Assembly (NCBI RefSeq): GCF_044324875.1
Contig: NZ_CP172187.1
Direction: 5' to 3' (one strand)
Source of the DNA: Escherichia coli
GTDB taxonomy: Bacteria; Pseudomonadota; Gammaproteobacteria; Enterobacterales; Enterobacteriaceae
DNA: 64,000 nucleotides
Shown here: piece by piece, positions 2,341-20,598 of the stretch
Position numbering within the stretch: position 1 is the first letter of the stretch
Layout of the letters: each line of letters starts with the position of its first letter
Program-made: the position numbers and the translations under genes
The notes under the pieces: generated by a model
What the model saw: only the letters and a program-made list of their open reading frames with translations
What the model was told of the DNA's origin: nothing
Database searches by the model: none

Positions 2341-2342
2341 CT

Positions 2343-3284
2343 GTGAGGAGAATTCCCATGCCAAACTGGTGCTCAAATCGTATGTATTTTTCTGGTGAAC
2401 CAGCACAGATCGCTGAGATTAAACGACTGGCCAGCGGTGCAGTCACACCGCTTTATCGCCGCGCCACAGATGAAGGTATTCAGCTGTTTCTGGCCGGTAG
2501 TGCCGGACTTCTGCAGACCACTGAAGATGTGCGGTTTGAACCATGCCCCGGACTGACGGCTGCCGGACGTGGTGTTGTATCGCCGGAGAATATCGCGTTC
2601 ACCCGCTGGCTGACACACCTGCAGAACGGTGTGCTACTGGATGAAAAAAACTGCCTGATGCTGCATGAACTCTGGCTGCAGAGTGGTACTGGCCAGCGTC
2701 GCTGGGAAGGATTACCGGATGAGGTCAGGGAAAGCATCACCGTGCATTTCACCGCCAAAAGAGGTAACTGGTGTGGCTTCTGGAGTAACGAGGATGTATC
2801 GGTGTGGTGGAACCGTCTGTGTGACAATGTACTGCCGGAAAAAACCATGCCGTTTGACCTGCTGACGGTTCTGCCCACCCGCCTGGATGTTGAAGTGAAT
2901 GGCTTTAACGGTGGTGTTCTGAACGGTGTTCCTTCTGCGTATCACTGGTATACGGAACAGTATGGCGTGAAGTGGCCTGTGGGGTATGAGGTGAATATCA
3001 GCAGTCAGGGAGACAACTTCATTCAGGTTGATTTCGACACGCCGTGGTGTCAGCCGGAAAGCGACGTTATTGCAGAATTAAGCCGCCGTTTCAGTTGCAC
3101 ACTGGAGCACTGGTATGCCGAGCAGGGCTGCAATTTCTGTGGCTGGCAGCGATATGAGCGTGGAGAGCTTGTTGATGTCCTGTGGGGGGAATTGGAATGG
3201 TCTTCCCCGACAGATGACGATGAGCTGCCGGAAGTCACCGGACCTGCGTGGATTGTCGACAAGGTGGCGCATTACGGTGGATGA
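2343..3284 (+). CDS. Hypothetical leading-region protein (313 aa; Cys/Trp-rich), function unknown
   Basis: Long ORF immediately downstream of repeat A copy 1; alternative start ATG at 2358 (MPNWCS...). No motif I can assign. Confidence 0.55.
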   Translation: MRRIPMPNWCSNRMYFSGEPAQIAEIKRLASGAVTPLYRRATDEGIQLFLAGSAGLLQTTEDVRFEPCPGLTAAGRGVVSPENIAFTRWLTHLQNGVLLDEKNCLMLHELWLQSGTGQRRWEGLPDEVRESITVHFTAKRGNWCGFWSNEDVSVWWNRLCDNVLPEKTMPFDLLTVLPTRLDVEVNGFNGGVLNGVPSAYHWYTEQYGVKWPVGYEVNISSQGDNFIQVDFDTPWCQPESDVIAELSRRFSCTLEHWYAEQGCNFCGWQRYERGELVDVLWGELEWSSPTDDDELPEVTGPAWIVDKVAHYGG

Positions 3285-3289
3285 ATTCT

Positions 3290-3650
3290 GACGGAGACGG
3301 GCGGGCAACCGCCCGTTTCTTTTCCGACAAAGGATGTCGCCGTGCTCCTCTTTTTACTGCGCCGGCTGACGCGGCGCGGCATAAACGCTGCCTGTGGTCA
3401 GTGTCCCGCGTCCGGCGGGCACGGGACGGGCGCTTTTACCGCTCCCGGCTGGCACCGGTGACAGTGTACGCCAGCCCGTCGCCCTTTTCTGATGAACGCC
3501 CTTCAAGCCGCTTTCGCGGCATAGCCTTGCCGTCAAAAAGACGACGGCTGCGGTATTCCACGGTCGGCCTGACCCGTTACCGGACGCGGTGAACAGCCCA
3601 CAGGCAGCGGGGAACGGGCACCACAGGGGTGCCCTCCCGGTGCCTTCTGT
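3290..3650. repeat. Leading-region repeat family A, copy 2
   Basis: Direct repeat of 1985-2340 with a few substitutions; ends at the RBS (AAGGAGG) of the methyltransferase gene at 3668. Confidence 0.8.
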
Positions 3651-3667
3651 AAGAGAAGGAGGCTTTT

Positions 3668-4351
3668 ATGTCCCGTTTTATCCTGGGTGACTGCGTGCGA
3701 GTTATGGCCACGTTTCCGGACAATGCTGTCGATTTCATCCTCACCGACCCGCCGTATCTCGTCGGTTTCCGTGACCGTTCCGGGCGCACCATTGCCGGTG
3801 ACGTTAACGATGACTGGTTGCAACCTGCCAGCAATGAGATGTACCGCGTACTCAAAAAAGACGCTCTGTTGGTCAGCTTCTACGGCTGGAACCGTATTGA
3901 CCGCTTTATGGCGGCCTGGAAACGCGCCGGATTCAGCGTGGCAGGGCACCTCGTGTTCACCAAAAACTACACATCCAAATCTGCGTATGTCGCGTACCGC
4001 CACGAATGCGCCTACATCCTGGCAAAAGGCCGTCCACGTCTGCCACAAAACCCGCTGCCGGACGTGCTGGGCTGGAAATATTCGGGCAATCGTCATCACC
4101 CGACGGAAAAGCCTGTTACCAGCCTGCAACCGCTGATTGAGAGCTTCACACACCCGAACGCAATTGTGCTGGACCCGTTTGCAGGCAGCGGCTCAACCTG
4201 CGTTGCCGCCCTCCAGTCCGGACGCCGGTATATCGGTATCGAGCTGCTTGAGCAGTATCACCGTGCCGGACAGCAACGACTGGCTGCCGTTCAACGGGCC
4301 ATGCAGCAGGGGGCCGCGAATGATGACTGGTTTATGCCGGAGGCTGCGTAA
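3668..4351 (+). CDS. Orphan DNA methyltransferase, beta-class (N6-adenine/N4-cytosine type; DPPY motif precedes the SAM-binding FAGSGST motif)
   Basis: 227-aa ORF with TDPPYLVGF near the N-terminus and DPFAGSGSTCVAA near the C-terminus; no adjacent restriction endonuclease gene. Confidence 0.85.
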   Translation: MSRFILGDCVRVMATFPDNAVDFILTDPPYLVGFRDRSGRTIAGDVNDDWLQPASNEMYRVLKKDALLVSFYGWNRIDRFMAAWKRAGFSVAGHLVFTKNYTSKSAYVAYRHECAYILAKGRPRLPQNPLPDVLGWKYSGNRHHPTEKPVTSLQPLIESFTHPNAIVLDPFAGSGSTCVAALQSGRRYIGIELLEQYHRAGQQRLAAVQRAMQQGAANDDWFMPEAA

Positions 4352-4573
4352 ATGAACTATGCCGGACACGAAAAACTTCGCGCCGAAGTGGCGGAGGTGG
4401 CCAACACCATGTGTGACCTTCGGGCCAGGCTGAACGATATGGAGCATCGCTGTCGTTTTGATTCCGATGTGCTTGTTGAACGCCTGACACGCCAGACGCT
4501 GTATCGCGCCAATCGCCTGTTTATGGAGGCGTATACCGAAATTCTTGAACTGGATGCGTGCTTCAAAGATTAA
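4352..4573 (+). CDS. Hypothetical small protein (73 aa)
   Basis: ATG abuts the methyltransferase stop; same strand as all leading-region genes. Confidence 0.5.
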   Translation: MNYAGHEKLRAEVAEVANTMCDLRARLNDMEHRCRFDSDVLVERLTRQTLYRANRLFMEAYTEILELDACFKD

Positions 4574-4585
4574 GGGGGAGACGAA

Positions 4586-5020
4586 ATGTACGGAACATGC
4601 GAAACACTCTGCCGGGAGCTGGCAGCGCAGTATCCGGGAGACACGCCGCTGATGCTGGTTGTCTGGTCCCCGGAAGAGATTCAGGCACTGGCTGACGGTA
4701 TGGAAATTTCTCTGACCGATCATGAAATCAGGACCGTCCTGTCGCGCCTGGAGGACATCCCGGAAGACCAGCGGAGTGAATCCGGTATTTCTTCTGCCGC
4801 TGCGATGGAGATTATCAGCAACGTGAGCGAAAACCGCCAGGTGACCGTCCCTGCTGAACTGCTGGCGTCCCTGATTCAGACCGCCGAACAGGCACTGTGG
4901 AAACGTGAATGGGCCGCCCGTGATAACGGCCTTGCCGTCCCGGAATGTGTTACCCGCCGTCAGGCAGTGATTAATCAGGCCCGCACCCTGCTGAAAAACA
5001 ACACACACGAAAACAACTGA
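4586..5020 (+). CDS. Hypothetical acidic protein (144 aa); paralog of ORF 6497..6919
   Basis: Shares the R(Q/H)VTVPA motif and a similar N-terminal pattern with ORF 6497..6919; RBS GGGGGAG upstream. Confidence 0.6.
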   Translation: MYGTCETLCRELAAQYPGDTPLMLVVWSPEEIQALADGMEISLTDHEIRTVLSRLEDIPEDQRSESGISSAAAMEIISNVSENRQVTVPAELLASLIQTAEQALWKREWAARDNGLAVPECVTRRQAVINQARTLLKNNTHENN

Positions 5021-5134
5021 TGTTATCGCCGCCTGCCCTCTGCCATTCAGAGACTGACCGGAACCGGGGCGGAACTGGTACTGTCCGGCAGTCAGTGGCA
5101 GTCGCTGCCGGTACTTCCGGCAGACGGAACGCAG

Positions 5135-5608
5135 GTGTCTTTCCCGTATGCCGGAGAATGGCTGACCGAAGACGAAATCAGGGCTGTTCTTGATGCGGTG
5201 CACGATGCGGTACGAAGCATCTGTTACCAGGTGGCAGAAGATACGCGGCGTATCCGTGCGGCGCTGACCACCACCGGTCAGACGTTGCTGACCCGCCAGA
5301 CGCGCCGCTTTCGCCTGGTCGTGAAGGAAAGCGATCATCCCTGCTGGCTCGATGAAGATGACGAAAACCTGCCCGTAGTGCTCGATGTCATCGTGAACCG
5401 GGGCGCACGTTTTTCGGCAGTGGAAATGTACCTGGTCAGCGATTGTATTGAGCATATCCTGTCCAGTGGGCTGGCCTGCGATGTGCTGCGTATACCGGAT
5501 GAACCGCCCCGCCGCTGGTTTGACCGTGGTGTTCTGCGGGAGGTGGTCCGGGAAGCCCGGACCGAAATCCGCAGCATGGCGGATGCCCTGGCAAAAATCC
5601 GTAAATGA
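5135..5608 (+). CDS. Hypothetical protein (157 aa)
   Basis: Co-oriented ORF; no recognisable motif. Confidence 0.5.
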
Positions 5609-5749
5609 TGACACTGGCGGGGTAAATCCCCGCCTTTTTCCTGCCGGTCCCCGGACAGAGCACAAAGGAAGTCGCCGCCGGCTCCGCTTTACCCGGCCAT
5701 GCGGGGCATGGCCTTGTGGATTTTCAGTTATGTGGCCTCAGCGTCGTGT

Positions 5750-5990
5750 GCGGGCTGTGCCGTGCCTCCATCGTAGCCGGGCTTCTGCGGGCGGGTTGCA
5801 AGGTAAGGTGAACCGCTGCGGTCACCCGGTCCCTCCTTCCCGTCTGCCGTGATTTTCCGGTCGTTCACCCGCTCAGATTTCGCGGTCTCACCCTCCAACT
5901 CCCGCCAGCCGTGTGCGTCAGGCTGCGGCTTCCCTTGCGCCCTTGCAACCCTGCAGGCCCGGCAAAGATGGAGGCACGGCACCGCCCGGT
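5750..5990. other. Long-range inverted repeat in a GC-rich 415-bp intergenic region upstream of klcA; candidate single-strand hairpin promoter/ssi element
   Basis: GCCGTGCCTCCATC (about 5763) pairs with GATGGAGGCACGGC (about 5968) about 190 nt apart, with further local palindromes; no ORF of note. Confidence 0.4.
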
Positions 5991-6024
5991 GTCGCGGAAT
6001 ATGTGAACAACGGAGGAAAACATC

Positions 6025-6450
6025 ATGCAATATGCGAAACCTGTCACTCTGAATGTTGAAGAGTGCGACCGTCTGTTTTTTCTGCCTTACCTGTTTGGCC
6101 AGGATTTTCTGTATGCCGAGGCATCTGTGTACGCGCTGGCGAAAAAAATGATGCCGGAATATGACGGCGGATTCTGGCACTTCATCCGCCTGCCGGACGG
6201 TGGCGGTTACATGATGCCGGATGGCGACCGTTTTCATCTGGTCAACGGTGAAAACTGGTTTGACCGTACGGTCAGCGCCGATGCCGCAGGCATCATTGTG
6301 ACTTCCCTTGTGATTAACCGTCAGTTGTGGCTGTACCACGACAGCGGTGATGCAGGACTGACTCACCTGTACAGGATGCGCGATGCGCAGTTGTGGAGCC
6401 ACATCGAATTTCACCCCGAATGCAATGCGATTTACGCGGCACTGGACTGA
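6025..6450 (+). CDS. klcA: KlcA/ArdB-family anti-restriction protein
   Basis: 141 aa with family hallmarks FLPYLFG...[16 protein letters not shown]...[11 protein letters not shown], matching my recollection of KlcA/YfjX-type proteins. Confidence 0.8.
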
Positions 6451-6496
6451 TTAACGGACGGGGCGGCAATGCCGCCCCTGTAAAGGAGACGAGAAC

Positions 6497-6919
6497 ATGT
6501 ACTGTACTGTTAAAGAAATTATCCGCGAAGTGCTGGATACAGACGTGCCGGACAGTGAATGCGTTTTTGCCGTGGTGCTGACCCGTGGGGATGTGCGCCA
6601 CATAGCTCAGGACTGGAGTCTGGCAGACGATGAGCTGGAAACCGTCATGCAGCGGCTGGACGATGCCTTTGAGCATGGTGCGGATGTCAGCGTTGTTCAC
6701 GACGTTGTTCGTGAACTGATGGAAGAAAAGCGCGCCAGCCGTCATGTGACAGTCCCGGCGATGATGCTGGAAAAAGTGATGGCGCTGGCAGGCAGTGAAA
6801 TGAAGCGCCTGTATGCCGTCGGAAGTGAGAACGGGGGCGACGGTGACGCATTCGTCAGGGAGGAACGCGAAGCAATGGACGTTGTGTTACAGGCGCTGGA
6901 CGGGGAGACGATGTCATGA
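6497..6919 (+). CDS. Hypothetical acidic protein (140 aa); paralog of ORF 4586..5020
   Basis: Shares the RHVTVPA motif and N-terminal pattern with ORF 4586..5020; RBS AAGGAG upstream. Confidence 0.6.
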   Translation: MYCTVKEIIREVLDTDVPDSECVFAVVLTRGDVRHIAQDWSLADDELETVMQRLDDAFEHGADVSVVHDVVRELMEEKRASRHVTVPAMMLEKVMALAGSEMKRLYAVGSENGGDGDAFVREEREAMDVVLQALDGETMS

Positions 6920-7107
6920 ATATCAGCACAGAAACCCGCGAAATTCTGCGTAATTACAGGGCCGTGATTAATGCGCGGCGTCGTGAAATGGGGCAGAAAC
7001 CGCTCACCACCGCGCAGATTGTTGATGAAATCTGCGATTTTGTGGCGAATCAGCAGGCGGTTTTCCTGGGCGGTCACTACATCTTACAGGGCAGCAGAAA
7101 CAGGTGA
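6916..7107 (+). CDS. Hypothetical small protein (63 aa)
   Basis: ATG overlaps the preceding stop (ATGA), suggesting translational coupling. Confidence 0.4.
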   Translation: MNISTETREILRNYRAVINARRREMGQKPLTTAQIVDEICDFVANQQAVFLGGHYILQGSRNR

Positions 7108-7295
7108 TACAGGGGCAGGCGGTGGAGGCCGCCTGTCAGCCCGCGCGAAAACCCCTGGCAGGCTGACGCCTGCCGGAAGGGAAGCGGGCCACGCTGGCGC
7201 GTCGCCCGTTACCCTTCCCGTCTGTGATGTGTCTGACTCAGGAGTGTTTCTTTCTTATGTTGCGGAACTGTTCCTGATGTTGTTGTTGTTCCTTT

Positions 7296-7895
7296 ATCTG
7301 CTGCTCTGATTCTGACTACTGCAGTGTTGTTCTGTCTGCCGGGCGCACCTTCGGCTCCCGGCTGCCTGGCGGCATCCGGTCGTCAGGCCCGACTCCGACA
7401 GGCAGCTGCTGGCGCACCTGCCAGTCTCCGCCGAACCCGCTGGCGCGGCTTCGGGCTGCCGCTACGGTCCGATGCGTGAAAACCCCGGGCTTGCAGCGAC
7501 CGTTCTGGTCGCGCCGCCTCTGTCGCGCCGTGGCCTGCGCTCCAGGCATCCCGGCAAAAAGACGCCGGGATGTAAGGCGCAACGCCGTTTCGCAAACCGC
7601 GCTTCACGTCGTTGCTGCGGGTCCCTGCTCATTGCCTGCCGGGTGCCACACACCCGTATGAGTCCCTGTCGCCGGGGGCATAGACAGCCACAACCTGCCG
7701 CACTGACTGTCCAGGGTAAATGAACAGCCCACAAAATTTTTTACCCAAAACCCGGTAAAAAATTTTGCGTTCTGCCCAGGACAGGTGCGTCAGGCCGTGG
7801 CAGTGATGCCCCTTGCGGCGAAGGTTCTCAAACGGGTGAAGTTCATACCACAGGGAATACAGCAGCAGGTTCCCGCGAAACGTCAAAACCGCGGC
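7296..7895. repeat. Leading-region repeat family B, copy 1 (~600 bp, GC-rich); candidate Frpo/ssi-like single-strand promoter
   Basis: Shares ...CTGATTCTGACTACTGCAGTGTTGTTCTGTCTGCCGGGCGCACCTTCGGCTCCCGGCTGCC... through ...CGCGGCTCCCGAAACTCAAC with copies at 10651-11280 and 18720-19340. Confidence 0.8.
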
Positions 7896-8148
7896 TCCCG
7901 AAACTCAACGGGTGATGTTCTTTAAAAATCAGGATTTATTTCAGGCTCCGGCAATACGCATTTATGTGTTCTGTCAGTCATCCGGCTGGCAGGTAATGAG
8001 AACGCAGGAACAGAAGGAGGAAAACACCGGAGAACGTCAGACGCAGATATGAAAAAAGCAGGCCGGGGAGGACCTGCTTAATCCACACCGCAAAAACTGT
8101 TCGAGCAGTTTCTGCGGTTCCATTCAACAGTCATAAGGAGTTTCATTT

Positions 8149-8379
8149 ATGACGGTAAGTATTGTTTCACCTTCCGCAGCGGCTGTAAAGCCCCGCCGTC
8201 ATCCCCGTTTCAGACGCGAAGACATCCCCGCGCCGGAAATTGACCCCGTGCTGAAAGCCTTCGGGCGACACATAGCCCGGAGTTTTCACCGGGGGCGTGG
8301 TGTACACATCCCCGCCATGAAAAACACGGCCTTCGGGCAGGTGCTCCGCACACTCGAACTGAAACGCGCTTTTAACTGA
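8149..8379 (+). CDS. Hypothetical small basic protein (76 aa)
   Basis: ORF downstream of repeat B copy 1 with RBS AGGAG. Confidence 0.4.
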   Translation: MTVSIVSPSAAAVKPRRHPRFRREDIPAPEIDPVLKAFGRHIARSFHRGRGVHIPAMKNTAFGQVLRTLELKRAFN

Positions 8380-8430
8380 TGAGGTGAGCCGCCCCGCGAG
8401 GGGCGGCAACAGATGGAAGGAGAACATTTT

Positions 8431-9792
8431 ATGACATTAGCAGCAATCACCATGACCGCCCCGGAAGCCGCCAACCCTGTGCAGATGTACCGCGCGACCT
8501 ACTCACCGGATGACAACAAACTGCGCCTGTATGCCGCGTCACGTCTTGACCCGGAGACGTATAAAAAAGTGCATGATGCCGGTTTTCGCTGGGCACCCAA
8601 ACAGGCGCTGTTTGTCGCGCCAGCCTGGACACCGGGCCGGGAAGACGTGCTCCTCTCACTTGCCGGAGAGATTGAGGATGAAGACAGCACGCTCGCTGAA
8701 CGTCAGGAAGCACGGGCGGAGCGGTTTACCGGATACAGCGGAAAGCGGGCCAGTGAATCCGCACAGGCACTTGATGAAGTGGAAAGACTGGCCGCGATGA
8801 TCCCGCCCGGTCAGCCCATTCTTGTGGGGCATCACAGCGAACGCCGCGCCCGTCGTGATGCGCAGCGTATTGAAAACGGCATGAAACGTGCCGTGATGCT
8901 CTTTGAGCGTGCGGAATACTGGGAGGAGCGGGCGCGGTCGGCACTGCTTCACGCGAAGTATAAAGAACGCCCGGACGTTCGCTGGCGTCGTATCAAAAAA
9001 ATCGAAGCGGATTTGCGCAAGGCTGAAAAGACCATCGCGCAGTCGCAGAAATATCTGACGATGTGGCGGGCTGAATCGCTGGATCTGAATATGGCAAAAC
9101 TCATCAGCAGTCATGACCATATCAGCGCCTGTTTCCCGCTGGACAGGTATCCGCGCCCGGCAGAAAAAAGCCAGTATGAAGGAAGTCGATCGTTATGGTC
9201 GGCCCTGGATGATGACATCATCACCACGGAGCAGGCCCGCGAAATTGCGATCCGCTGTCATGAACGGCAGATTCAGCATCAACAACGCTGGGTTAACCAC
9301 TATCATAACCGCCTGATCTATGAGCGTGCCATGCTGGACGAAAGCGGCGGCGTGGTTACCCGGACACAGGATTTTGAGCCGGGCGGACAGGTTTTCAGCC
9401 GGGGCGAGTGGCTGACCATCATCCGCGTGAACAAAAGCAACGGGGCGGTGAGTTCAGTCACAACGCCGAATTACAGTTTTCTCGGGTACAGCGGCACGAT
9501 GAAAGTGACACCCGATCGCATCACGGACTACAAAGCACCATCGGCAGAAGAGGCTGCCGTCGCCAGTCAGGCCGCGAAGCGTCCGCCGGTAGTCAACTAT
9601 CCGGGGGAAGGTTTCCGGGAAATGACAAAGGCGCAGTGGGCCGCCCTGCCCCGGGACTGTAAGGCCGTGCGCAGTGTGGCAGAGACAGAAGACCACGGGG
9701 CATACCGCTACCGCCGCACAATGGACAATAATTTCCGCCTGGTGAATGTGTATATCACTGACATGAAAATCACGGAAATCCCACAGAAATAA
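8431..9792 (+). CDS. Conserved hypothetical leading-region protein (~453 aa)
   Basis: ORF-track frame 8413..9792; ATG at 8431 follows AAGGAGAA. Charged and coiled-coil-like; no catalytic motif recognised. Confidence 0.55.
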   Translation: MTLAAITMTAPEAANPVQMYRATYSPDDNKLRLYAASRLDPETYKKVHDAGFRWAPKQALFVAPAWTPGREDVLLSLAGEIEDEDSTLAERQEARAERFTGYSGKRASESAQALDEVERLAAMIPPGQPILVGHHSERRARRDAQRIENGMKRAVMLFERAEYWEERARSALLHAKYKERPDVRWRRIKKIEADLRKAEKTIAQSQKYLTMWRAESLDLNMAKLISSHDHISACFPLDRYPRPAEKSQYEGSRSLWSALDDDIITTEQAREIAIRCHERQIQHQQRWVNHYHNRLIYERAMLDESGGVVTRTQDFEPGGQVFSRGEWLTIIRVNKSNGAVSSVTTPNYSFLGYSGTMKVTPDRITDYKAPSAEEAAVASQAAKRPPVVNYPGEGFREMTKAQWAALPRDCKAVRSVAETEDHGAYRYRRTMDNNFRLVNVYITDMKITEIPQK

Positions 9793-9838
9793 GGTATATC
9801 CCCCCGGGAAATCCCCGGGGGATGACGGAGATAATGAC

Positions 9839-10402
9839 ATGCACAGTCAGTTAAGAGAACGTATCCGGCTGATGCGCGCAAGGCTGGATAACGCCGCGCC
9901 GGTTGCTGAAATCCGGGCTGAATCTCAGCTTTTTGTGACTCCTGCCCCGGTCTGTGATCGCCTGGTGACGCTGGCGGAAATCAGCAACCGTGATCACATT
10001 CTGGAACCCTCTGCCGGCACCGGGGCCATACTGCTGGCGATTCGGGATACCGCGCCGGAGGCCATGTGTGATGCGGTGGAGATTAACAGCGGGCTGGTCC
10101 GGTATCTGCGGGAAAATTTTAACGGTGTCAGGGTACAGTGTGGCGACTTCATGGAATGGCAGCCGGTGCAGTATTACAGCCGGATCATTATGAATCCGCC
10201 GTTCAGTCACGGGCAGGATATCCGGCATATCCTGCGGGCTTTTTCCCTGTTGCGTCCGGGGGGCGTTCTGGTTGCCGTCTGTCTCAACGGGCCGCGCCAG
10301 CAGGAGAAGCTGTTACCGTTTTCTGACGTCCGCGAGGAGCTGCCGCGCGGCACGTTTGCTTATACCGATGTCCCGACGATGATTATTCGTTTGCGTGCCT
10401 GA
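9839..10402 (+). CDS. Small SAM-dependent methyltransferase (187 aa); probable second orphan N6-adenine DNA methyltransferase
   Basis: SAM-binding-like LEPSAGTGAILLA followed by IMNPPF (NPPF-type motif IV); too short for a separate target-recognition domain, so substrate is uncertain. Confidence 0.65.
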   Translation: MHSQLRERIRLMRARLDNAAPVAEIRAESQLFVTPAPVCDRLVTLAEISNRDHILEPSAGTGAILLAIRDTAPEAMCDAVEINSGLVRYLRENFNGVRVQCGDFMEWQPVQYYSRIIMNPPFSHGQDIRHILRAFSLLRPGGVLVAVCLNGPRQQEKLLPFSDVREELPRGTFAYTDVPTMIIRLRA

Positions 10403-10581
10403 TGACACAGGGCTGGCGGGAGGATAAATGCCCGTCTGTCCGCGCCGGGAAAAGACCGCGCGCCGGTGGCGCTGAAAGGGGCCGCGCTCACGCGCCGCCC
10501 CTTTCATTACGCGGACGTTCTGATGGGGGCTTCTGTCTTTTCAGACCTGTCATTTGTCTGTTACTGATGATGTTGTTGTTC

Positions 10582-10647: not shown

Positions 10648-10650
10648 TTC

Positions 10651-11280: not shown

Positions 11281-11308
11281 TGAAAACATCAACAGAAGGA
11301 GACACATC

Positions 11309-11960: not shown

Positions 11961-13862
11961 ATGCTGCCTGATGAACTTGAGAAAAGATTAGATGGAATTG
12001 AGGATGCTTCAAAAAAAGGGTATCCAGTACGTAATCTATACAAAATTGCGTGTGAGCCCGGACTGTGGCTGCAAGCCTACGTGAATATACGGGCCAATGC
12101 AGGTGCACTGACTCAAGGTGTATCAACAGATACCATTGATGGCTTTTCTATCGAAAGAGCAGAGAAGCTGGCAAAAACATTGCGGAGTAGAGAATACGTA
12201 GCGAAACCTGTACGCAGAGTTCAGATCCCAAAAAAGGACGGAAAAACCAGACCGCTGGGGATTCCAGGTGGAGACGATAAACTGGCGCAAGAAGTAGCAA
12301 GAATTATTCTGGAAAGGGTTTATGAACCAGTATTCTCTGAACACTCTCATGGATTCAGACCAAAACGTTCGTGTGAAACTGCGCTCAGATCTATTCGTCC
12401 AGTCTGGAACGGAGTTAAATGGATCGTGGATGTTGATATCAAAGGTTTCTTTGACAATATCCCCCACAAACTATTGCTGAATACACTGGCAGAGAAAATT
12501 AAGGATAAGAATTTCCTGAAATTAATCGAACAGTGGCTGAAGGCAGGATATGTGGACAATTGGAAATACCATCGCTCATATTCTGGCACGCCACAAGGTG
12601 GGATAATTTCTCCCTTACTGGCAAATATATACCTCGACAAACTGGACCGTTTTGTAGAACAGAATTTAATTCCTGCATATACAAGCGGTACAAAACGAAG
12701 AGCGAATCCAGATATGAACAGGCTGGCCCATAAGATTCATAAACTACGAAAGAAAGTAGACGGTATGGCAACTGATTCTGAATCAGAAAAAGAAGCCATA
12801 AAGAAAGAAATTGAACGACTGCTTGAAGAAAAACGTTCTATACCATCTCAGGTCATGAACGATCCAAACTTCAGGCGTATGTACTATGTTCGATATGCTG
12901 ATGACTTCGTAATCGGTGTCATCGGCTCGAAGAAAGATGCTGAACATATATCAAGACAGGTCAGAAACTTTATTACTACTTCACTGGGATTGGAAGTTAA
13001 TGAAGCAAAGACCAGGATCCGCCATATCTCAGAAGGAGTTAATTTTTTAGGCTATGAAATCAGACAGGCAGATGCAAAGAAATTGCTGAAGCAGAAAATG
13101 CAAGGGCGGCACGCTCTCCGGAGATCCACCACAGGAATTGTGCAGCTCTTCGTTCCTGACAATATAGCCGCTAAATTTTGTCACCAAAAGAAATATGGCT
13201 GTTATGAGAATGTGAAGGCTGTACATCGTTCAAGTCTACAAAATCTCAGTGAAGCTGAAATTGTTCTGACTTTCAACGCGGAAATGCGCGGATTGGCGAA
13301 CTACTACAGTCTGGCGCTGGACATGAAATATAAATTATCAAAATTATATTTCATATGGCAAATAAGCCTTTTTAAGACCCTGGCGAATAAACGACGTAGT
13401 TCAGTGAATAAAGTCGCCAAATCGCTACGGCAAAATAATGGAGATCTGGCTATTACCGTTCAGGCCAAAAATGGATCCCGAAAGATTGAGGTTTTCAAAC
13501 TCAAACATGTCAATCGCAACCGAACAACGATTGTCGATACGGAACCGAGAACCGCACATATCACAACCCGCACAACAGAGATCATGCGTCGATTAGGGGC
13601 AAGGATCTGCGAGTATTGTGCGAAGACTGGGCGCTGCGAAGTACATCATGTCAGAAAGCTAAAAGACCTGAAGAAAGGTCGTAAGGCCGGATATAAACCC
13701 AGCTTGTGGCAACTAATGATGATCGCACGCCGCCGGAAAACGATGATTTTGTGCGCAAGTTGCCACGACAAGTTACATAGCGGAAAACTACCCGATTTGA
13801 GACAGGAAAAGGGAAGAATACTCCTGCAACCACCTGTCTCAAGCGGGGATTCTGCTAAATGA
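11961..13862 (+). CDS. Group II intron-encoded protein: reverse transcriptase, maturase (X) and HNH endonuclease domains
   Basis: 633 aa with RT motifs (LGIPGGDDKLAQE, SHGFRPKRSCETAL, FFDNIPH, GTPQGGIISPLLANIYL, YVRYADDFVIGV) and a C-terminal Cys/His HNH-like cluster (CEYCAKTGRCEVHHV...CASCHDKLH). Confidence 0.9.
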   Translation: MLPDELEKRLDGIEDASKKGYPVRNLYKIACEPGLWLQAYVNIRANAGALTQGVSTDTIDGFSIERAEKLAKTLRSREYVAKPVRRVQIPKKDGKTRPLGIPGGDDKLAQEVARIILERVYEPVFSEHSHGFRPKRSCETALRSIRPVWNGVKWIVDVDIKGFFDNIPHKLLLNTLAEKIKDKNFLKLIEQWLKAGYVDNWKYHRSYSGTPQGGIISPLLANIYLDKLDRFVEQNLIPAYTSGTKRRANPDMNRLAHKIHKLRKKVDGMATDSESEKEAIKKEIERLLEEKRSIPSQVMNDPNFRRMYYVRYADDFVIGVIGSKKDAEHISRQVRNFITTSLGLEVNEAKTRIRHISEGVNFLGYEIRQADAKKLLKQKMQGRHALRRSTTGIVQLFVPDNIAAKFCHQKKYGCYENVKAVHRSSLQNLSEAEIVLTFNAEMRGLANYYSLALDMKYKLSKLYFIWQISLFKTLANKRRSSVNKVAKSLRQNNGDLAITVQAKNGSRKIEVFKLKHVNRNRTTIVDTEPRTAHITTRTTEIMRRLGARICEYCAKTGRCEVHHVRKLKDLKKGRKAGYKPSLWQLMMIARRRKTMILCASCHDKLHSGKLPDLRQEKGRILLQPPVSSGDSAK

Positions 13863-13888
13863 GTTTATCCCCAATAAGCTAGCAATGG

Positions 13889-13926
13889 AGAGCCGTATGC
13901 ACTGAAAGGTGCACGTACGGTTCGGA
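13889..13926 (+). ncRNA. Group II intron domain V (catalytic hairpin)
   Basis: Matches the conserved domain V consensus as I recall it (GAGCCGUAUGC...GCACGUACGGUUC), about 80 nt from the 3' splice site. Confidence 0.7.
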
Positions 13927-14008
13927 GGGGGGGTAACGGTGATCTAACTCAAGATAAGCAGGACATATTCGCCATTTATCTTGAAAGACCACACGTACCC
14001 TACCCTAC

Positions 14009-14497
14009 CGTCTGGGAAAAGATCCGGAAGTCCGTTACATCCCAAACGGGGGCGCAGTGGCAAACCTGCAGGTGGCCACGTCAGAAAGCTGGCGCGACAA
14101 ACAGACGGGGGAGATACGGGAGCAGACAGAATGGCATCGCGTGGTGCTGTTCGGCAAGCTCGCGGAAGTGGCTGGTGAGTATCTGCGCAAGGGCGCGCAG
14201 GTCTACATCGAAGGTCAGCTTCGCACCCGTAGCTGGGAGGATAACGGTATCACCCGTTACGTCACCGAAATTCTTGTTAAGACCACGGGCACCATGCAGA
14301 TGCTGGGACGTGCCGCAGGTACTCAGACTCAGCCGGAAGAGGCGCAACAGTTCAGCGGTCAGCCTCAGCCGGAATCACAGCCGGAACCGAAAAAAGGAGG
14401 CGCGAAAACGAAAGGCCGTGGACGTAAGGCCGCGCAGCCGGAGCCTCAGCAGCCGTCTGAACCCGCGTATGACTTCGATGACGACATTCCGTTCTAA
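14009..14497 (+). CDS. ssb: Plasmid single-stranded DNA-binding protein, exon 2
   Basis: In frame with ORF 14057..14497 ([19 protein letters not shown]...DDDIPF, acidic SSB tail); upstream in-frame codons [17 protein letters not shown] continue the SSB OB-fold. Confidence 0.8.
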
Positions 14498-14510
14498 CGA
14501 AAGACAGTGA

Positions 14511-14786
<276 letters not shown>

Positions 14787-14849
14787 GAGAGGTGCCGGAC
14801 GGGAACGCGTCCGGCAGACATACAACCATCCCGGTCAAAGGAGAAATAT

Positions 14850-16807
14850 ATGTCAGTTACAGAGTCTAAGACAAAAACGGAGCGTAAATCCAGCCGTAAA
14901 CCTGCAAAAACGCAGGAAACTGCACTGTCTGCCCTGCTGGCGCAGACGGAGGAAGTGAGCGTGCCGCTGGATTCACTGATTAAATCACCGCTGAATGTGC
15001 GCACGGTGCCGTATTCTGCGGAGTCCGTCAGTGAACTGGCTGATTCCATTAAGGGAGTCGGCCTGCTGCAGAATCTGGTTGTTCATGCCCTGCCAGGTGA
15101 CCGTTACGGTGTCGCCGCAGGTGGTCGCCGACTGGCAGCACTCAACATGCTGGCAGAGCGTGACATCATTCAGGCTGACTGGCCTGTCCGCGTGAAAATT
15201 ATTCCGCAGGAGCTGGCGACGGCTGCATCGATGACCGAGAACGGTCATCGTCGGGATATGCACCCTGCCGAACAGATTGCCGGATTCCGCGCAATGGCGC
15301 AGGAAGGCAAAACACCTGCGCAAATCGGTGATTTGCTGGGCTATTCACCCCGCCATGTCCAGCGAATGCTGAAACTGGCTGACCTTGCGCCTGTCATCCT
15401 CGATGCGCTGGCAGAAGACCGCATCACCACCGAACACTGTCAGGCGCTGGCGCTGGAGAACGACACCGCGCGTCAGGTGCAGGTGTTTGAAGCCGCTGCC
15501 AGTCAGGATGGGGTGGAAAACCGGATGTGCGGGTTATCCGCAACCTGATTACGGAAAGTGAAGTGGCGGTGAAGGACAACACTAAATTTCGCTTTGTGGG
15601 GGCTGATGCTTTCTCGCCTGACGAACTGCGCACCGATTTGTTCAGCGATGACGGGGACGGTTATGTCGACCGCGTGGCGCTCGATGCCGCCCTGCTGGAA
15701 AAACTCCAGGTTGTTGCAGAGTCCCTTCGGGAAGCAGAAGGCTGGGAATGGTGCGCCGGGCGCATGGAGCCAGTCGGTGAGTGCCGTGAGGATGCCGGAA
15801 CATACCGCTGTCTGCCGGAGCCGGAAGCGGTGCTGACGGAGGCGGAAGAAGAACGCCTGAACGAACTGATGACGCGTTACGACGCGCTGGAAAACCAGTG
15901 TGAGGAATCCGACCTGCTGGAAGCAGAAATGAAGCTGATGCGCTGCATGGCGAAGGTCAGAGCGTGGACGCCGGAGATACGTGCCGGAAGCGGTGTGGTG
16001 GTGTCCTGGCGTTATGGCAACGTATGTGTCCAGCGTGGTGTGCAGTTGCGCAGTGAAGATGACGCGACTGACGACGCTGACCGCACGGAACAGGTGCAGG
16101 AGAAAGCGTCAGTGGAGGAAATCAGTCTGCCACTGCTGACGAAAATGTCTTCCGAACGCACGCTGGCAGTCCAGGCGGCACTGATGCAGCAACCGGACAA
16201 ATCCCTGACACTGCTGGCATGGACGCTCTGCCTGAATGTGTTTGGCAGCGGAGCGTACAGTAAACCAGCACAAATCAGCCTGGAATGTAAACATTATTCG
16301 CTGACCAGCGATGCGCCGTCAGGGAAGGAAGGTGCCGCATTCATGGCGCTGATGGCAGAAAAAGCCCGTCTTGCGGCCCTGTTACCGGAGGGATGGTCAC
16401 GGGACATGACGACATTCCTTTCACTCAGTCAGGAGGTGCTGTTATCCCTGCTCAGTTTCTGCACCGCGTGCAGCATCCACGGCGTTCAGACCCGCGAGTG
16501 TGGTCACACGTCACGCAGCCCGCTGGACACGCTGGAGAGCGCCATCGGTTTTCACATGCGCGACTGGTGGCAGCCGACAAAAGCAAACTTCTTCGGACAC
16601 CTGAAAAAGCCGCAGATTATCGCAGCCCTGAATGAGGCAGGACTGTCCGGTGCCGCACGGGACGCGGAGAAGATGAAGAAAGGCGATGCGGCTGAACATG
16701 CAGAGTTCCATATGAAAGACAACCGCTGGGTGCCTGGCTGGATGTGTGCACCACGTCCACAGACGGATACCACTGAACGCACTGATAACCTGGCTGATGC
16801 CGCCTGA
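14850..16807 (+). CDS. ParB-like nuclease-domain protein, apparently split by a frameshift into 14850..15548 and 15527..16807
   Basis: N-terminal part has ParB/Srx-like motifs (LQNLVVHALPGDRYGVAAGGRRLAALN, HTH-like region); the second ORF continues in another frame with a 22-nt overlap. Combined length (~650 aa) is that of intact homologues as I recall them. Confidence 0.6.
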
Positions 16808-16858
16808 TGAACAACCACACCGCCCCGCCGGAGACGGGGCGGCAGCAAGGGAGATACC

Positions 16859-17296
16859 GTGATGAAAACTGAACTGACCCTGAATGTCCTGCAGACCATG
16901 AACGCACAGGAATATGAAGATATCCGTGCTGCGGGAAGCGATATGCGCCGTAATCTCACTCACGAGGTGATGCGTAAAGTGGACGCACCGGCTAACTGGA
17001 TGATGAATGGCGAGTATGGCAGTGAGTTCGGGGGCTTTTTCCCCGTCCAGGTTCGTTTCACGCCAGCCCACGAACGTTTTCACCTGGCGTTATGTTCACC
17101 GGGCGATGTCTCTCAGGTCTGGGTGCTGGTTCTGGTGAATGCCGGTGGTGAGCCGTTTGCGGTGGTTCAGGTGCAGCGGCGGTTTGCACCGGAAGCTGTC
17201 AGCCATTCACTGGCACTGGCGGCGTCACTGGATGCGCAGGGGTACAGCGTTAACGACATCATTCATATCCTGATGGCGGAAGGAGGTCAGGCATGA
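16859..17296 (+). CDS. psiB: PsiB, plasmid SOS-inhibition protein
   Basis: 145 aa matching F-plasmid PsiB nearly end to end from memory ([25 protein letters not shown]...). Confidence 0.9.
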
Positions 17297-18012
17297 GCGC
17301 ACGTTCACAGGCACTGGTTCCTCTCAGCACAGAGCAACAGGCCGCATGGCGGGCGGTGGCGGAGACCGAAAAACGCCGCCATCAGGGTAACACGCTGGCT
17401 GAATATCCGTATGCGGGTGCGTTTTTCCGCTGTCTGAACGGAAGCCGCAGGATATCGCTGTCTGACCTGCGATTTTTCATGCCGTCCCTGACCGCAGAAG
17501 AACTGCACGGCAACCGTCTTCAGTGGCTGTATGCCATCGATGTGCTGATTGAAACACAGGGCGAGGTCTGCCTCCTTCCCCTTCCCGGTGATGCAGCAGA
17601 GCGCTTGTTCCCGTCGGTGCGGTTTCGTGTCAGGGAACGCAGTCGCCATAAATCCGCGCTGGTCATGCAGAAGTACAGCCGCCAGCAGGCGAGGGAGGCA
17701 GAGCAGAAAGCCCGTGCGTACCAGGCGCTGGTCGCTCAGGCTGAAATCGAACTGGCATTCCATTCGCCGGAAACAGTCGGAAGCTGGCATGCACGCTGGA
17801 GTGACCGGGTGGCAGAGCATGACCTGGAAACCCTGTTCTGGCAGTGGGGCGAGCGTTTTCCGTCACTGGCCGGAATGGAACGCTGGCAGTGGCAGGATAT
17901 GCCGTTCTGGCAGGTTATTGCGGAAGCCAGTCTTGCAGCAAGAGAGGCCGGTCACGCTGTCCGTGAGATGGAGCGGTGGATGGTGCCGAACAAACTCCGG
18001 GAGGCAGCGTGA
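17293..18012 (+). CDS. psiA: PsiA
   Basis: 239-aa ORF overlapping psiB by 4 nt in the canonical psiB-psiA arrangement; sequence consistent with F PsiA. Confidence 0.85.
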
Positions 18013-18199
18013 TGCGGCAACAATCACACGGATTTCCCGTGAACGGTCTGAATGAGCGGATTATTTTCAGGGAAAGTGAGTGTGGTCAGCGTGCAGGTAT
18101 ATGGGCTATGATGTGCCCGGCGCTTGAGGCTTTCTGCCTCATGACGTGAAGGTGGTTTGTTGCCGTGTTGTGTGGCAGAAAGAAGATAGCCCCGTAGTA

Positions 18200-18270
18200 A
18201 GTTAATTTTCATTAACCACCACGAGGCATCCCTATGTCTAGTCCACATCAGGATAGCCTCTTACCGCGCT
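18200..18270 (-). ncRNA. sok: Sok-type antisense RNA of the hok/mok/sok locus; approximate position
   Basis: Placed by analogy with type I hok/sok systems, where the antisense overlaps the mok start region; exact ends not determinable by eye. Confidence 0.35.
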
Positions 18271-18446
18271 TTGCGCAAGGAGAAGAAGGCCATGAAACTA
18301 CCACGAAGTTCCCTTGTCTGGTGTGTGTTGATCGTGTGTCTCACACTGTTGATATTCACTTATCTGACACGAAAATCGCTGTGCGAGATTCGTTACAGAG
18401 ACGGACACAGGGAGGTGGCGGCTTTCATGGCTTACGAATCCGGTAA
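18234..18446 (+). CDS. mok: Mok/FlmC-like overlapping reading frame that couples hok translation
   Basis: 70-aa ORF overlapping hok in a different frame. Confidence 0.55.
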
Positions 18447-18450
18447 GTAG
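18292..18450 (+). CDS. hok: Hok/FlmA type I toxin (52 aa)
   Basis: Hand translation: [52 protein letters not shown]; too short for the ORF track. Confidence 0.85.
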
Positions 18451-18719
18451 CAACCTGGAGGCGGGCGCAGGCCCGCCTTTTCAGGACTGATGCTGGTCTG
18501 ACTACTGAAGCGCCTTTATAAAGGGGCTGCTGGTTCGCCGGTAGCCCCTTTCTCCTTGCTGATGTTGTACGGGCATGAACAACCTGACTTCAGGAAGGTC
18601 GTTTCCCTTCAGGAACGGGGATGAACGCGCGCCTGCGGCGCCCGTTCTTTTCCCCCGCCTTCTCTGGTTATGGCCTGTCAGAAATCACATCACCTTCCCT
18701 GTGATTATTCTCTTTTTCT

Positions 18720-19340
18720 TCCTGCTCTGATTCTGACTACTGCAGTGTTGTCCTGTCTGCCGGCGCACCTTCGGCTCCCGGCTGCCTGGCGGCATCCGGT
18801 CGTCAGGCCCGACTCCGACAGGCAGCTGCTGGCGCACCTGCCAGTCTCCGCCGAACCCGCTGGCGCGGTTTCGGGCTGTCGCTACGGTCCGATGCGTGAA
18901 AACCCCGGGCTTGCAGCGACCGTTCCGGTCGCGCCGCCTCTGTCGCGCCGTGGCCTGCGCTCCTGGCATCCCGGCAAAAAGACGCCGGGATGTAAGGCGC
19001 AACGCCGTTTCGCAAACCGCGCTTCACGTCGTTGCTGCGGGTCCCTGCCCGTTGTTGTGTCCGGTGCCATTCACCTGTTTAAGCCCCTGTCGCCGGGGGC
19101 TGATACAGCCACAACCTGCCGCACTGACTGTCCAGGGTAAATGAACAGCCCACAAAATTTTTTACCCAAAACCCGGTAAAAAATTTTGCGTTCTGCCCAG
19201 GACAGGTGCGTCAGGCCGTGGCAGTGATGCCCCATGCGGCGAAGGTTCTCAAACAGGTGATGGTGAATACCGGAGGGAACAAAGAGCAGGTCCCCGCAAA
19301 ACGTCAAAACCGCGGCTCCCGAAACTCAACAGATGATGGG
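18720..19340. repeat. Leading-region repeat family B, copy 3
   Basis: Direct identity with copies 1 and 2; ends about 30 nt upstream of the ATG at 19371. Confidence 0.8.
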
Positions 19341-19370
19341 GGCTGAAAACCAGAGAGAGGAGAAAGCTGG

Positions 19371-19658
19371 ATGAGTACCCGAAATATCCACGTTAACACC
19401 GCGTCGTACACGATTCTTGTTGCCGGGAGGGAAAAAAACACCGGGGAAGAGTGGGACGTCCTGGAATTCAGCAGCCTGACTGAGCTGAAAAAATATCGCA
19501 AAAGCCACCCGGAAAAGATGGCCTTCAGCTATAGCTACGCGCTCAGCCGGGGTGTGGATACGCAGTTCCGCCATATCAACATTGCGGAAGCCGATCACTT
19601 CAAACAGTTCCTGCGTCAGATTAAGCGTGCCGGCCTCGATATCCGGGCGATCTGCTGA
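19371..19658 (+). CDS. Hypothetical protein (95 aa) downstream of repeat B copy 3
   Basis: ORF with RBS GGAGAAAG. Confidence 0.5.
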   Translation: MSTRNIHVNTASYTILVAGREKNTGEEWDVLEFSSLTELKKYRKSHPEKMAFSYSYALSRGVDTQFRHINIAEADHFKQFLRQIKRAGLDIRAIC

Positions 19659-19776
19659 CCGGATGTGATGAATATCCCTCCTGATTGTTGCAATCTTGTT
19701 AATGGAGATCGGGAGAGATGATATTAAGCGGAAAAATTTTTTATTAAATTTATTCTTTCATAAAGGAGTAGCTGTT

Positions 19777-20598
19777 ATGCGATTAGCTTCCCGTTTTGGT
19801 CGGTATAATTCCATCCGTCGTGAACGTCCTTTAACGGATGATGAATTAATGCAGTTCGTGCCTTCGGTATTTTCCGGTGATAAACATGAGTCCCGGAGTG
19901 AACGTTATACGTATATTCCAACAATCAATATCATCAATAAGTTACGTGATGAAGGTTTCCAGCCATTCTTTGCCTGTCAGAGTCGGGTTCGTGATTTGGG
20001 ACGCCGCGAATACAGTAAACATATGTTACGTCTTCGCAGGGAAGGGCATATTAACGGGCAGGAAGTTCCTGAAATTATCCTGCTTAATTCACATGATGGT
20101 TCATCCAGTTATCAGATGATCCCCGGAATTTTTCGTTTTGTCTGCACAAATGGCCTGGTGTGCGGAAATAATTTTGGCGAAATCCGTGTTCCACATAAAG
20201 GTGATATTGTCGGGCAGGTTATCGAGGGAGCGTATGAAGTGCTCGGTGTCTTTGATAAGGTCACTGATAATATGGAGGCGATGAAAGAAATTCATCTTAA
20301 CAGTGACGAGCAACATTTATTTGGCAGAGCTGCACTGATGGTCAGGTATGAAGATGAAAATAAAACGCCAGTGACACCTGAACAGATAATTACTCCCCGT
20401 CGTCGGGAAGATAAACAGAACGATCTCTGGACAACCTGGCAGCGGGTTCAGGAGAATATGATAAAAGGTGGATTATCGGGGCGAAGTGCCTCCGGGAAAA
20501 ATACCAGGACAAGAGCCATTACAGGTATTGATGGTGATATAAGAATCAACAAGGCGTTATGGGTGATTGCCGAACAGTTCAGAAAGTGGAAGTCATGA
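19777..20598 (+). CDS. Conserved leading-region protein (273 aa), possibly DUF932/YubP-like
   Basis: ORF-track frame 19696..20598; ATG at 19777 preceded by AAGGAG. Family assignment is from memory and uncertain. Confidence 0.5.
   Translation: MRLASRFGRYNSIRRERPLTDDELMQFVPSVFSGDKHESRSERYTYIPTINIINKLRDEGFQPFFACQSRVRDLGRREYSKHMLRLRREGHINGQEVPEIILLNSHDGSSSYQMIPGIFRFVCTNGLVCGNNFGEIRVPHKGDIVGQVIEGAYEVLGVFDKVTDNMEAMKEIHLNSDEQHLFGRAALMVRYEDENKTPVTPEQIITPRRREDKQNDLWTTWQRVQENMIKGGLSGRSASGKNTRTRAITGIDGDIRINKALWVIAEQFRKWKS

Follow-up and report, generated by a model that had tools for sequence, protein, structure and literature searches.

Co-oriented genes and transferred-strand hairpins in the leading region of an F-like plasmid of Escherichia coli

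Gene content and limits of the block

The strand polarity of a plasmid leading region was analyzed in a 64,000-nucleotide (nt) stretch of Escherichia coli DNA (contig NZ_CP172187.1, assembly GCF_044324875.1), referred to below as the window. Protein-coding genes occupy 75% of its interval 2343–20598, and all 22 of them lie on the plus strand. The window belongs to an IncF plasmid. Its positions 2000–21800 match thousands of IncF plasmids, the best full-length matches being with plasmids of the pEC958/pEK499 type (~96.8% identity across the interval), and the sequence is a mosaic, in which the part 3600–7200 is 99.9% identical to pTB-nb3. The annotation of the related plasmids shows the classic gene order of the F leading region, and to the right of the interval traM (at 21828) is followed by the traJ leader with FinP (Rfam) and then by a complete tra operon. 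In this stretch lies the leading region of a conjugative plasmid of the F-like type (MOBF/MPF_F).

From left to right, the genes of the interval are those for DUF1281, a DNA methylase, a 73-amino acid (aa) open reading frame (ORF), DUF1380, a 5′-truncated ORF, a KlcA-type antirestriction protein, a second DUF1380 protein, ORFs of 63 aa and 76 aa, DUF3560, a methyltransferase, an 88-aa ORF, ssb, ltrA, DUF905, a ParB-like protein, psiB, psiA, mok, hok, orf95 and DUF932. They are grouped in six operons (Table 1). Matches to Pfam families were obtained for 16 of the 22 genes, 15 of them above the Pfam cutoff and one (the second DUF1380 gene) below it. The conserved leading genes, namely, ssb, psiB, psiA, hok/flm, the ORF95/DUF932 pair and gene X, are all present according to Pfam and to synteny with F.

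In pEC958, F, pTB-nb3 and two IncI1-type plasmids (L005 and L006), annotation places the genes of the block on one and the same strand as well. The window was compared with the same five relatives in the analysis of the ratio of non-synonymous to synonymous change (pN/pS). The plus-strand genes with a sufficient number of differences showed pN/pS values of 0.10–0.34 and a strong excess of substitutions at the third codon position (49/30/205 for the three positions in the methylase gene and 67/47/249 in the ParB-like gene), and these frames are under purifying selection. In orf95, substitutions were too few for a pN/pS judgement.

Three genes differ in structure from their counterparts. About 240 bp of pEC958 and F are absent at window positions 5020–5027, so that a 258-aa ORF loses its 5′ end; the deletion is common to the window and pTB-nb3. 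The ParB-like gene, which is a single 652-aa ORF in the relatives, is divided into ORFs of 232 aa and 426 aa by a one-base indel near 15527–15548, and the split is either a pseudogene or a sequencing error. As for ssb, it is broken after codon 13 by a 2661-nt group II intron in the sense orientation (11348 GTGCG ... 14008), whose domain V/VI is matched in Rfam; joining of the exons at 11347 and 14009 restores 21 N-terminal residues identical to those of the F SSB protein. The intron is named E.c.I11 in the paper on pEC958 (PMC4398462), where its place in ssb downstream of a single-stranded DNA (ssDNA) promoter is not remarked upon.

The original prediction placed the left start of the co-oriented region at 2343. 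The block begins further to the left, at 1971–1976, and ends exactly where the minus-strand dinI-like gene and umuD begin, so that its limits are umuD/dinI on one side and gene X on the other. It is known that umu operons form boundaries of leading-region islands (Samuel et al. 2024, PMC11541004). Gene X is the sole protein gene between the nick site and the block and is oriented opposite to the latter. In F, expression of the opposite-strand YgfA is delayed and appears only after conversion of single-stranded to double-stranded DNA (PMC9849209), and gene X of the window would likewise be readable only once the complementary strand is synthesized. A palindrome with a perfect 20-bp stem between the convergent DUF932 gene and gene X is likely a bidirectional terminator.

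Mobile insertions do not obey the orientation rule. In the Klebsiella IncI1-type plasmid L005, a group II intron other than that of the window lies on the minus strand (20053–21720), between the 63-aa ORF and ssb, where, by position, other plasmids have a class-1 hairpin element.

Open reading frames and antisense RNAs on the minus strand

Minus-strand ORFs of at least 60 aa were considered, and the interval contains 60 of them. A scan of 58 of these 60 gave no matches in NCBIfam and only one chance-level hit in Pfam (E = 0.0013). Among the 18 ORFs of at least 100 aa, 16 overlap supported plus-strand genes by at least 57%, and 12 of the 18 are in the codon-aligned antisense frame over all or part of the overlap; the remaining two lie in non-coding repeats and are broken in relatives. 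Long ORFs in the codon-aligned antisense frame arise by chance, because antisense stop codons there correspond to rare sense codons. The expectation of the original prediction that minus-strand ORFs of this interval are likely artefacts thus agrees with the lack of family matches, with the shadow frames and with the breaks in relatives.

The longest of these ORFs, that of 490 aa, was considered as a gene and rejected. Its pN/pS was determined piecewise, since the requirement of 60% coverage in a single alignment was unusable across the deletion at 5020/5027. It has no family match, 191 of its 297 substitutions fall at its own first codon position, and codon changes comprise 213 non-synonymous and 42 synonymous ones. 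In addition, of four relatives, all carry frameshifting indels in it and three carry stop codons. This ORF is the codon-aligned shadow cast by four plus-strand genes that lie in a common frame.

Six further minus-strand ORFs (2480–2878, 3050–3262, 4357–4566, 5335–5577, 16012–16200 and 16552–16959) were examined as coding candidates on account of their low pN/pS (0.14–0.42) and were also rejected. Four of them, 2480–2878, 4357–4566, 5335–5577 and 16552–16959, share third codon positions with the overlapping plus-strand gene, and 3050–3262 and 16012–16200 lie entirely within plus-strand genes; the low values are read as borrowed from the latter. The content of G and C by codon position was tried as a homology-free means to tell genes from shadows. 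In these genes its values at the first and third positions are about equal, codon-aligned antisense frames look alike, and substitution patterns were therefore used instead.

The small minus-strand “hypothetical proteins” that the NCBI pipeline calls in relatives fall within the hairpin repeats or overlap the sok region, belong to no family and, in about half of the relatives, are interrupted by frameshifts or stop codons. They include a 62-aa ORF corresponding to window 18024–18212, a 74-aa ORF in pTB-nb3 (~7383–7607 by position) and a 118-aa ORF in F. The ORFs 7383–7607, 10742–10939 and 18803–19027 occupy corresponding positions in the three copies of the class-1 repeat, and 10742–10939 shares third codon positions with an overlapping plus-strand ORF that looks non-coding itself (pN/pS 4.56).

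The only credible minus-strand units within the block are short antisense RNAs over translation-initiation regions, namely, AS-pc01 at the first gene of operon 4 and Sok at mok. AS-pc01, the locus of which is found in ~4000 plasmids, R100 included, is predicted from its sequence to form a complete unit of transcription on the minus strand, with a promoter-like site (TTTACA-17-AACAAT with TG, 8189–8161), a predicted start at ~8154 and a terminator formed by a hairpin and T6 (8079–8056). Comparison of five plasmids revealed compensatory changes in the middle stem of this RNA. Over its first 25 nt it is complementary to the Shine-Dalgarno sequence (8135–8140) and ATG (8149) of the 76-aa ORF, the first gene after copy 1 of the class-1 repeat.

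According to the established hok/sok architecture (PMC4398462), Sok must lie on the minus strand, antisense to mok/hok, and a candidate promoter, TTGCGC-17-TATCCT, is located at 18276–18248. The Rfam family RF01794 (sok) matches 18118–18294 on the plus strand (88.9 bits). This match was rejected as evidence of the Sok strand: the model, whose end coincides with the hok AUG, describes the leader of the hok mRNA and is uninformative in this respect. A second RF01794 match (62859–63015) likewise has plus orientation, and a reader who goes by the family name can be misled about the strand.

Outside the interval, the only other minus-strand features with Rfam support are likewise antisense RNAs (FinP, AS-traG, AS-traI, AS-pc02 and CopA), and the minus strand of the window as a whole is given to regulators rather than to protein genes. 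The strict asymmetry that had been claimed for all genes of the interval thus stands for ORFs and fails for RNA genes, AS-pc01 and, by homology to hok/sok, also Sok being on the minus strand. As for minus-strand transcription of defined ORFs, which had been named as the finding that would speak against the prediction, the minus-strand transcription units of the interval are short antisense RNAs and not ORFs.

Hairpin elements upstream of the operons

Folding of the minus strand as ssDNA places a large hairpin in front of each of the six operons (z from −5.9 to −12.2). The elements are two class-3-like, one class-2 and three class-1 (Frpo) elements. The class-1 repeat is present in the window in three copies of ~650 nt that are 93–98% alike, and as minus-strand ssDNA it folds into a hairpin of ~320 nt (−139 kcal/mol, z −12.2). 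F reportedly contains two ssDNA promoters in its leading region, Frpo1 and Frpo2 (Masai and Arai 1997). The hairpin part of the class-1 copies is 88.9–93.7% identical to two regions of F, those upstream of ssb and orf95; thus, window 10834–11290 shows 93.7% identity to F 12171–12625 (upstream of ssb) and 88.9% to F 17559–18012 (upstream of orf95). By their position, these F regions are Frpo2 and Frpo1 of Couturier et al. In the class-1 hairpin of the window, the tip bears an A/T-rich tract that may represent an UP element, and bulges in the stem may alter the spacing of the −35 and −10 sequences.

The class-2 element has homologous copies (87–89% identity) directly upstream of ardA in the IncI1-type plasmids L005 and L006. 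In the definition of Wen et al. (2025, PMC12672017), a class-2 ssDNA promoter is the hairpin that precedes klcA and that recurs in similar form before ardA in IncI1 plasmids. In relatives, ORFs annotated as “DUF1472 domain-containing protein” or “YubH family protein” extend over the class-2 hairpins upstream of klcA and ardA (18110–18682 and 25212–25682 in L006; 3618–4190 in L003), and these may be spurious calls on structured DNA. The DUF1472 annotation was tried as a marker of a minus-strand gene and discarded, since it is actually on the plus strand, over the class-2 hairpin.

The class-3-like element is located directly upstream of the methylase gene in every locus compared, including F and the IncI1-type loci, and Wen et al. 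place class 3 directly upstream of an M.EcoGIX-type methylase (PMC12672017). The element 3276–3592 is therefore probably the class-3 ssDNA promoter of the methylase, the class being assigned by position and fold. Folding of 3500–3700 alone, which cuts the element, gave a z of only −2.4 and was discarded in favor of the full element. The elements 1971–2287 and 3276–3592 form a direct duplication of ~317 nt (97% identity) that flanks the DUF1281 gene. The copy upstream of DUF1281 was found in none of the five relatives fetched; other plasmids match window 1–2400 at >99%. In relatives, the class-3-like unit is annotated as a 103-aa hypothetical protein, but with a pN/pS of 1.97 and flat GC content by codon position it looks non-coding.

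In the class-1 and class-2 elements, the minus-strand fold is more stable than the plus-strand fold by 6–13 kcal/mol, the difference being ~13 kcal/mol in all three class-1 copies. The full class-3-like elements were folded as minus strand only.

Table 1. Features of the leading region and its flanks (positions in the window)
Feature	Positions	Strand	Evidence and remarks
umuD and dinI-like gene	993–1735 (umuD 993–1430; dinI-like 1427–1735)	−	Pfam; block boundary
Class-3-like element, second copy	1971–2287	−	Upstream of DUF1281; z −5.9; true left end of block
Operon 1: DUF1281 gene	2343–3284	+	Pfam DUF1281 1.2e-47; pN/pS 0.22
Class-3-like element	3276–3592	−	Upstream of methylase; z −7.2 (3270–3670 folded)
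Operon 2: DNA methylase 3668–4351; 73-aa ORF 4352–4573; DUF1380 4586–5020; 5′-truncated ORF 5135–5608	3668–5608	+	Pfam; pN/pS 0.12–0.24
490-aa ORF	4193–5665	−	Longest ORF of the interval apart from ltrA; artefact
Class-2-type hairpin	5609–6024	−	Upstream of antirestriction gene; 416 nt, z −6.0
Operon 3: KlcA-type antirestriction 6025–6450; DUF1380 6497–6919; 63-aa ORF 6916–7107	6025–7107	+	Pfam Antirestrict 1.3e-26; pN/pS 0.10–0.23
Class-1 (Frpo-type) repeat, copy 1	7284–7932	−	Precedes operon 4; absent from this position in F
AS-pc01 antisense RNA	8053–8154	−	Rfam RF02875, 89.7 bits (gathering score 79), model positions 1–99 of 99
Operon 4: 76-aa ORF 8149–8379; DUF3560 8413–9792; methyltransferase 9839–10402; 88-aa ORF 10402–10668	8149–10668	+	Pfam; annotation of relatives
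Class-1 (Frpo-type) repeat, copy 2	10643–11290	−	Upstream of ssb; ~320-nt hairpin
Operon 5: ssb exon 1 11309–11347; group II intron 11348–14008 (ltrA 11961–13862); ssb exon 2 14009–14497; DUF905 14526–14786; ParB-like 14850–15548 / 15527–16807; psiB 16859–17296; psiA 17293–18012	11309–18012	+	Pfam; Rfam Intron_gpII; pN/pS 0.16–0.34
Sok/FlmB antisense RNA (putative)	18178–18241 (approximate)	−	Candidate promoter
Type I toxin genes: mok 18234–18446; hok 18292–18450	18234–18450	+	Pfam DUF5431 2.6e-41, HOK_GEF 1.2e-21
Class-1 (Frpo-type) repeat, copy 3	18704–19353	−	Transferred-strand hairpin upstream of operon 6
Operon 6: orf95 19371–19658; DUF932 gene 19696–20598	19371–20598	+	Pfam DUF932 3.1e-52; DUF932 pN/pS 0.14
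Palindrome, likely terminator	20599–20646		Perfect 20-bp stem
Gene X / ORF169 (ygfA), lytic transglycosylase	20895–21404	−	Pfam SLT 1.4e-21; ATG at 21404 with Shine-Dalgarno
oriT nick motif GTGT/GGTGCTTT (slash, nick)	21488–21499	−	R100 type; F oriT sequence in PMC3074121
FinP	22335–22411	−	Rfam
AS-traG	44330–44415	−	Rfam
AS-traI	56395–56471	−	Rfam
AS-pc02	60437–60620	−	Rfam
CopA	63825–63916	−	Rfam

Transferred strand and reading of the polarity

An F-type nick sequence, GTGTGGTGCTTT, occurs only once in the window, on the minus strand (21488–21499). The nick made in this strand by TraI would presumably lie between 21496 and 21495, a position taken from the origin of transfer (oriT) of the F family. 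The minus-strand context, gcaaaaacttgtttttgcgtagtgtgt/ggtgctttt (the slash marks the nick), corresponds to the F oriT oligonucleotide GCAAAAACTTGTTTTTGCGTGGGGTGTGGTGCTTT (Dostal et al., PMC3074121) with R100-type substitutions. TraI remains on the 5′ end of the nicked strand (PMC3074121); therefore, the minus strand enters the recipient in the 5′ to 3′ direction, in descending coordinates. The interval adjoins oriT at lower coordinates, that is, on the side into which the nicked strand extends from its 5′ end, and gene X, separated from the nick by 91 nt, enters first. Since all protein genes of 1971–20598 are on the plus strand, the minus strand is both the transferred strand and their template. 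The original prediction was right in naming the minus strand as transferred, but it relied on gene X together with oriT, and the nick motif alone defines the strand. Its proposal that the incoming single strand can serve as template is supported by the minus-strand nick and by the orientation of all 22 genes.

The explanation preferred here, to which we assign a probability of about 0.9, is that this is an F-like leading region whose co-oriented operons are read from the incoming strand by means of hairpin promoters. After nicking, the minus strand would enter the recipient 5′ end first and would act as template for every protein gene of the block. Host RNA polymerase would recognize the hairpins as promoters while the DNA is single-stranded, as homology with F and pESBL suggests, which would give a burst of establishment proteins, among them anti-restriction proteins, methylase, SSB and PsiB/PsiA. 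Once the complementary strand is made, the hairpins would be lost and these promoters silenced, and gene X, AS-pc01 and Sok would become readable only after this conversion.

For promoter activity on ssDNA and for its timing in the window, the published work on F and pESBL serves as the guide. In F, leading proteins are expressed before the conversion of single-stranded to double-stranded DNA, and this expression needs Frpo1/2 (Couturier et al. 2023, PMC9849209). An analysis of 21,907 elements showed that leading-region families of anti-defence, methylase, SSB and toxin-antitoxin genes are exclusively templated by the transferred strand, and an anti-CRISPR gene with its own Frpo protects well only in the transferred-strand orientation in the leading region (Samuel et al. 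2024, PMC11541004). For early transconjugants of pESBL and F, RNA-seq and 5′ rapid amplification of cDNA ends revealed six hairpin-headed operons; leading-region operons were induced up to ~500-fold within 15 min, and start sites were mapped to the hairpins (Wen et al. 2025, PMC12672017). The strand-specific RNA-seq after conjugation that had been suggested as a check of the prediction is, therefore, already in print for F and pESBL, with induction of the leading-region operons and starts at the hairpins. Both the observation and its interpretation proved correct, and both were already known (Couturier 2023; Samuel 2024; Wen 2025).

The leading region of F has the same order from oriT (gene X, DUF932/orf95, hok/mok, psiA, psiB, ParB-like gene, DUF905, ssb, KlcA-type gene, methylase) and the same orientation, gene X being the sole opposite-strand protein gene in both plasmids. 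Unlike F, the window contains a third class-1 copy with an extra operon (76-aa ORF, DUF3560, methyltransferase), a group II intron in ssb, a class-3-like element duplicated around DUF1281, a nick region of the R100 type and a frameshifted ParB-like gene. With the IncF plasmids pEC958/pEK499 of E. coli ST131 (PMC4398462) it shares intron E.c.I11 and the three class-1 repeats, whereas its left flank is umuDC-dinI and not sopAB, and psiA, frameshifted in pEC958, is intact.

The IncI1-type loci L005 and L006 contain a homologous block from DUF1281 to psiA that is oriented toward oriT and bounded by umuDC-dinI, as in the window. They also share the class-2 element (with its paralogue in front of ardA) and, before the methylase gene, the class-3-like element. 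The IncI1 systems used for comparison (ColIb-P9, pESBL) have a leading region with ssi1–3 and class-2/class-3 ssDNA promoters, and for pESBL itself six operons headed by hairpins are reported (Wen et al. 2025, PMC12672017). In contrast to the window, IncI1 plasmids have an unrelated relaxase and mating system (MOBP/MPF_I), ardA with further oriT-near genes, a few minus-strand regulators among them, whereas hok/mok and orf95-DUF932 are found in the window. The anti-defence islands of Samuel et al. (PMC11541004), with anti-restriction, methylase, SSB, SOS-inhibitor and toxin-antitoxin genes templated by the transferred strand, Frpo-like promoters and an umu operon as the far boundary, show no substantive difference from the window, which is an instance of this pattern.

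Several observations weigh against the reading of the block by means of hairpin promoters. The linear scan of the six hairpin elements found no sigma-70 −35/−10 pair (at least 8 of 12 matches, spacing of 16–18 nt) on either strand, and a scan of them at the default threshold was also without a match. The higher stability of the minus-strand fold over the plus-strand fold is absent in the stretches of 111 nt and 94 nt directly upstream of the methylase and DUF1281 genes. The evidence on expression comes from F and pESBL and not from the plasmid of the window. Moreover, damage is seen here in the frameshifted ParB-like gene, in the 5′-truncated ORF and in ssb with its 2.66-kb intron, and not every operon need be functional. 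Finally, plasmid pGF4-A has 51 of 52 annotated features on the plus strand in its region homologous to the part of the window from traY to repA, so that the leading region is not alone in its asymmetry within this window, and 22 genes out of 22 are less surprising than a chance of 2^-22 would imply. Co-orientation taken by itself is a weak argument, because the tra operon has the same orientation without being read from ssDNA. The view of the original prediction that the polarity supports a single-strand-promoter role of the repeats is sustained mainly by the hairpins at the head of every operon and by their homology to Frpo of F, the co-orientation itself lending it little.

The probability of 22 co-oriented genes out of 22 is about 2e-7 if the genes are independent, and about 0.016–0.03 if they are counted as six operons. 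The latter value leaves room for the alternative that the co-orientation reflects the general polarity of an F-like backbone, inherited as operon blocks, rather than selection for transcription of ssDNA. The count in pGF4-A and the positive GC skew in 30 of 32 bins across the window are in line with it. However, the block keeps its orientation toward oriT in the MOBP/IncI1-type plasmids, in combination with an unrelated relaxase and mating system, and this conservation is stronger evidence for selection than the count within the window. In addition, the block ends sharply at the minus-strand umuD/dinI, a transferred-strand hairpin is present at every operon, and functional effects were obtained in published experiments with orientation swaps (PMC11541004) and Frpo deletion (PMC9849209). 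Backbone polarity explains the tra genes and leaves the hairpins, the umu boundary and the orientation-swap experiments without explanation, and it is thus quite improbable as an alternative.

It is even less probable that co-orientation serves mainly to make transcription co-directional with complementary-strand synthesis and to avoid head-on collisions of transcription with replication. From the geometry of the nick, this synthesis would also proceed in ascending coordinates, so that both processes would run the same way, and ssDNA promoters may also supply RNA primers (Wen et al., PMC12672017). Nevertheless, as regards the failure of an anti-CRISPR gene with its own Frpo on the opposite strand, co-directionality adds nothing beyond the template argument. 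It is compatible with the data, complements the transcription of the incoming strand from hairpins and may add to its effect.

The least credible of the alternatives, with hardly any probability left to it, is chance or an artefact of ORF calling, i.e., that real minus-strand protein genes were missed. The NCBI pipeline repeatedly calls small minus-strand hypothetical proteins in the interval, the ORF 7383–7607 has 14 of 18 substitutions at its own third codon position, and the survey was limited to ORFs of at least 60 aa. Against this stand the lack of families among the small minus-strand ORFs, their location in the hairpin repeats or the sok region and their disruption in about half of the relatives, and the window has no counterpart of the 118-aa ORF of F, judged by position.

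Beyond the preferred explanation, it may be speculated that the strand rule acts as a two-way timer, in which expression from hairpin promoters is unopposed during the single-stranded phase and is then actively silenced by the antisense RNAs. The latter would act only after conversion, because their plus-strand template does not exist before complementary-strand synthesis. We regard this idea as rather doubtful, though clearly less so than the alternatives above. The group II intron of ssb may in turn exploit the burst at entry for production of its reverse transcriptase in each new host, since it sits just downstream of a class-1 hairpin.

For annotation, the polarity justifies discarding the long minus-strand ORFs, casts several “hypothetical protein” calls within the hairpin elements as DNA that is probably non-coding and marks the true limits of the block; these points, together with the speculative timer role of the minus-strand antisense RNAs, are what residual interest the case holds. 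As for the biology of such plasmids, the polarity allows proteins against restriction and the SOS response, and proteins that protect DNA, to be made from the incoming strand before host defences act. It is central to the establishment of resistance plasmids in new hosts, a role that is already recognized and has experimental support for F and IncI1.

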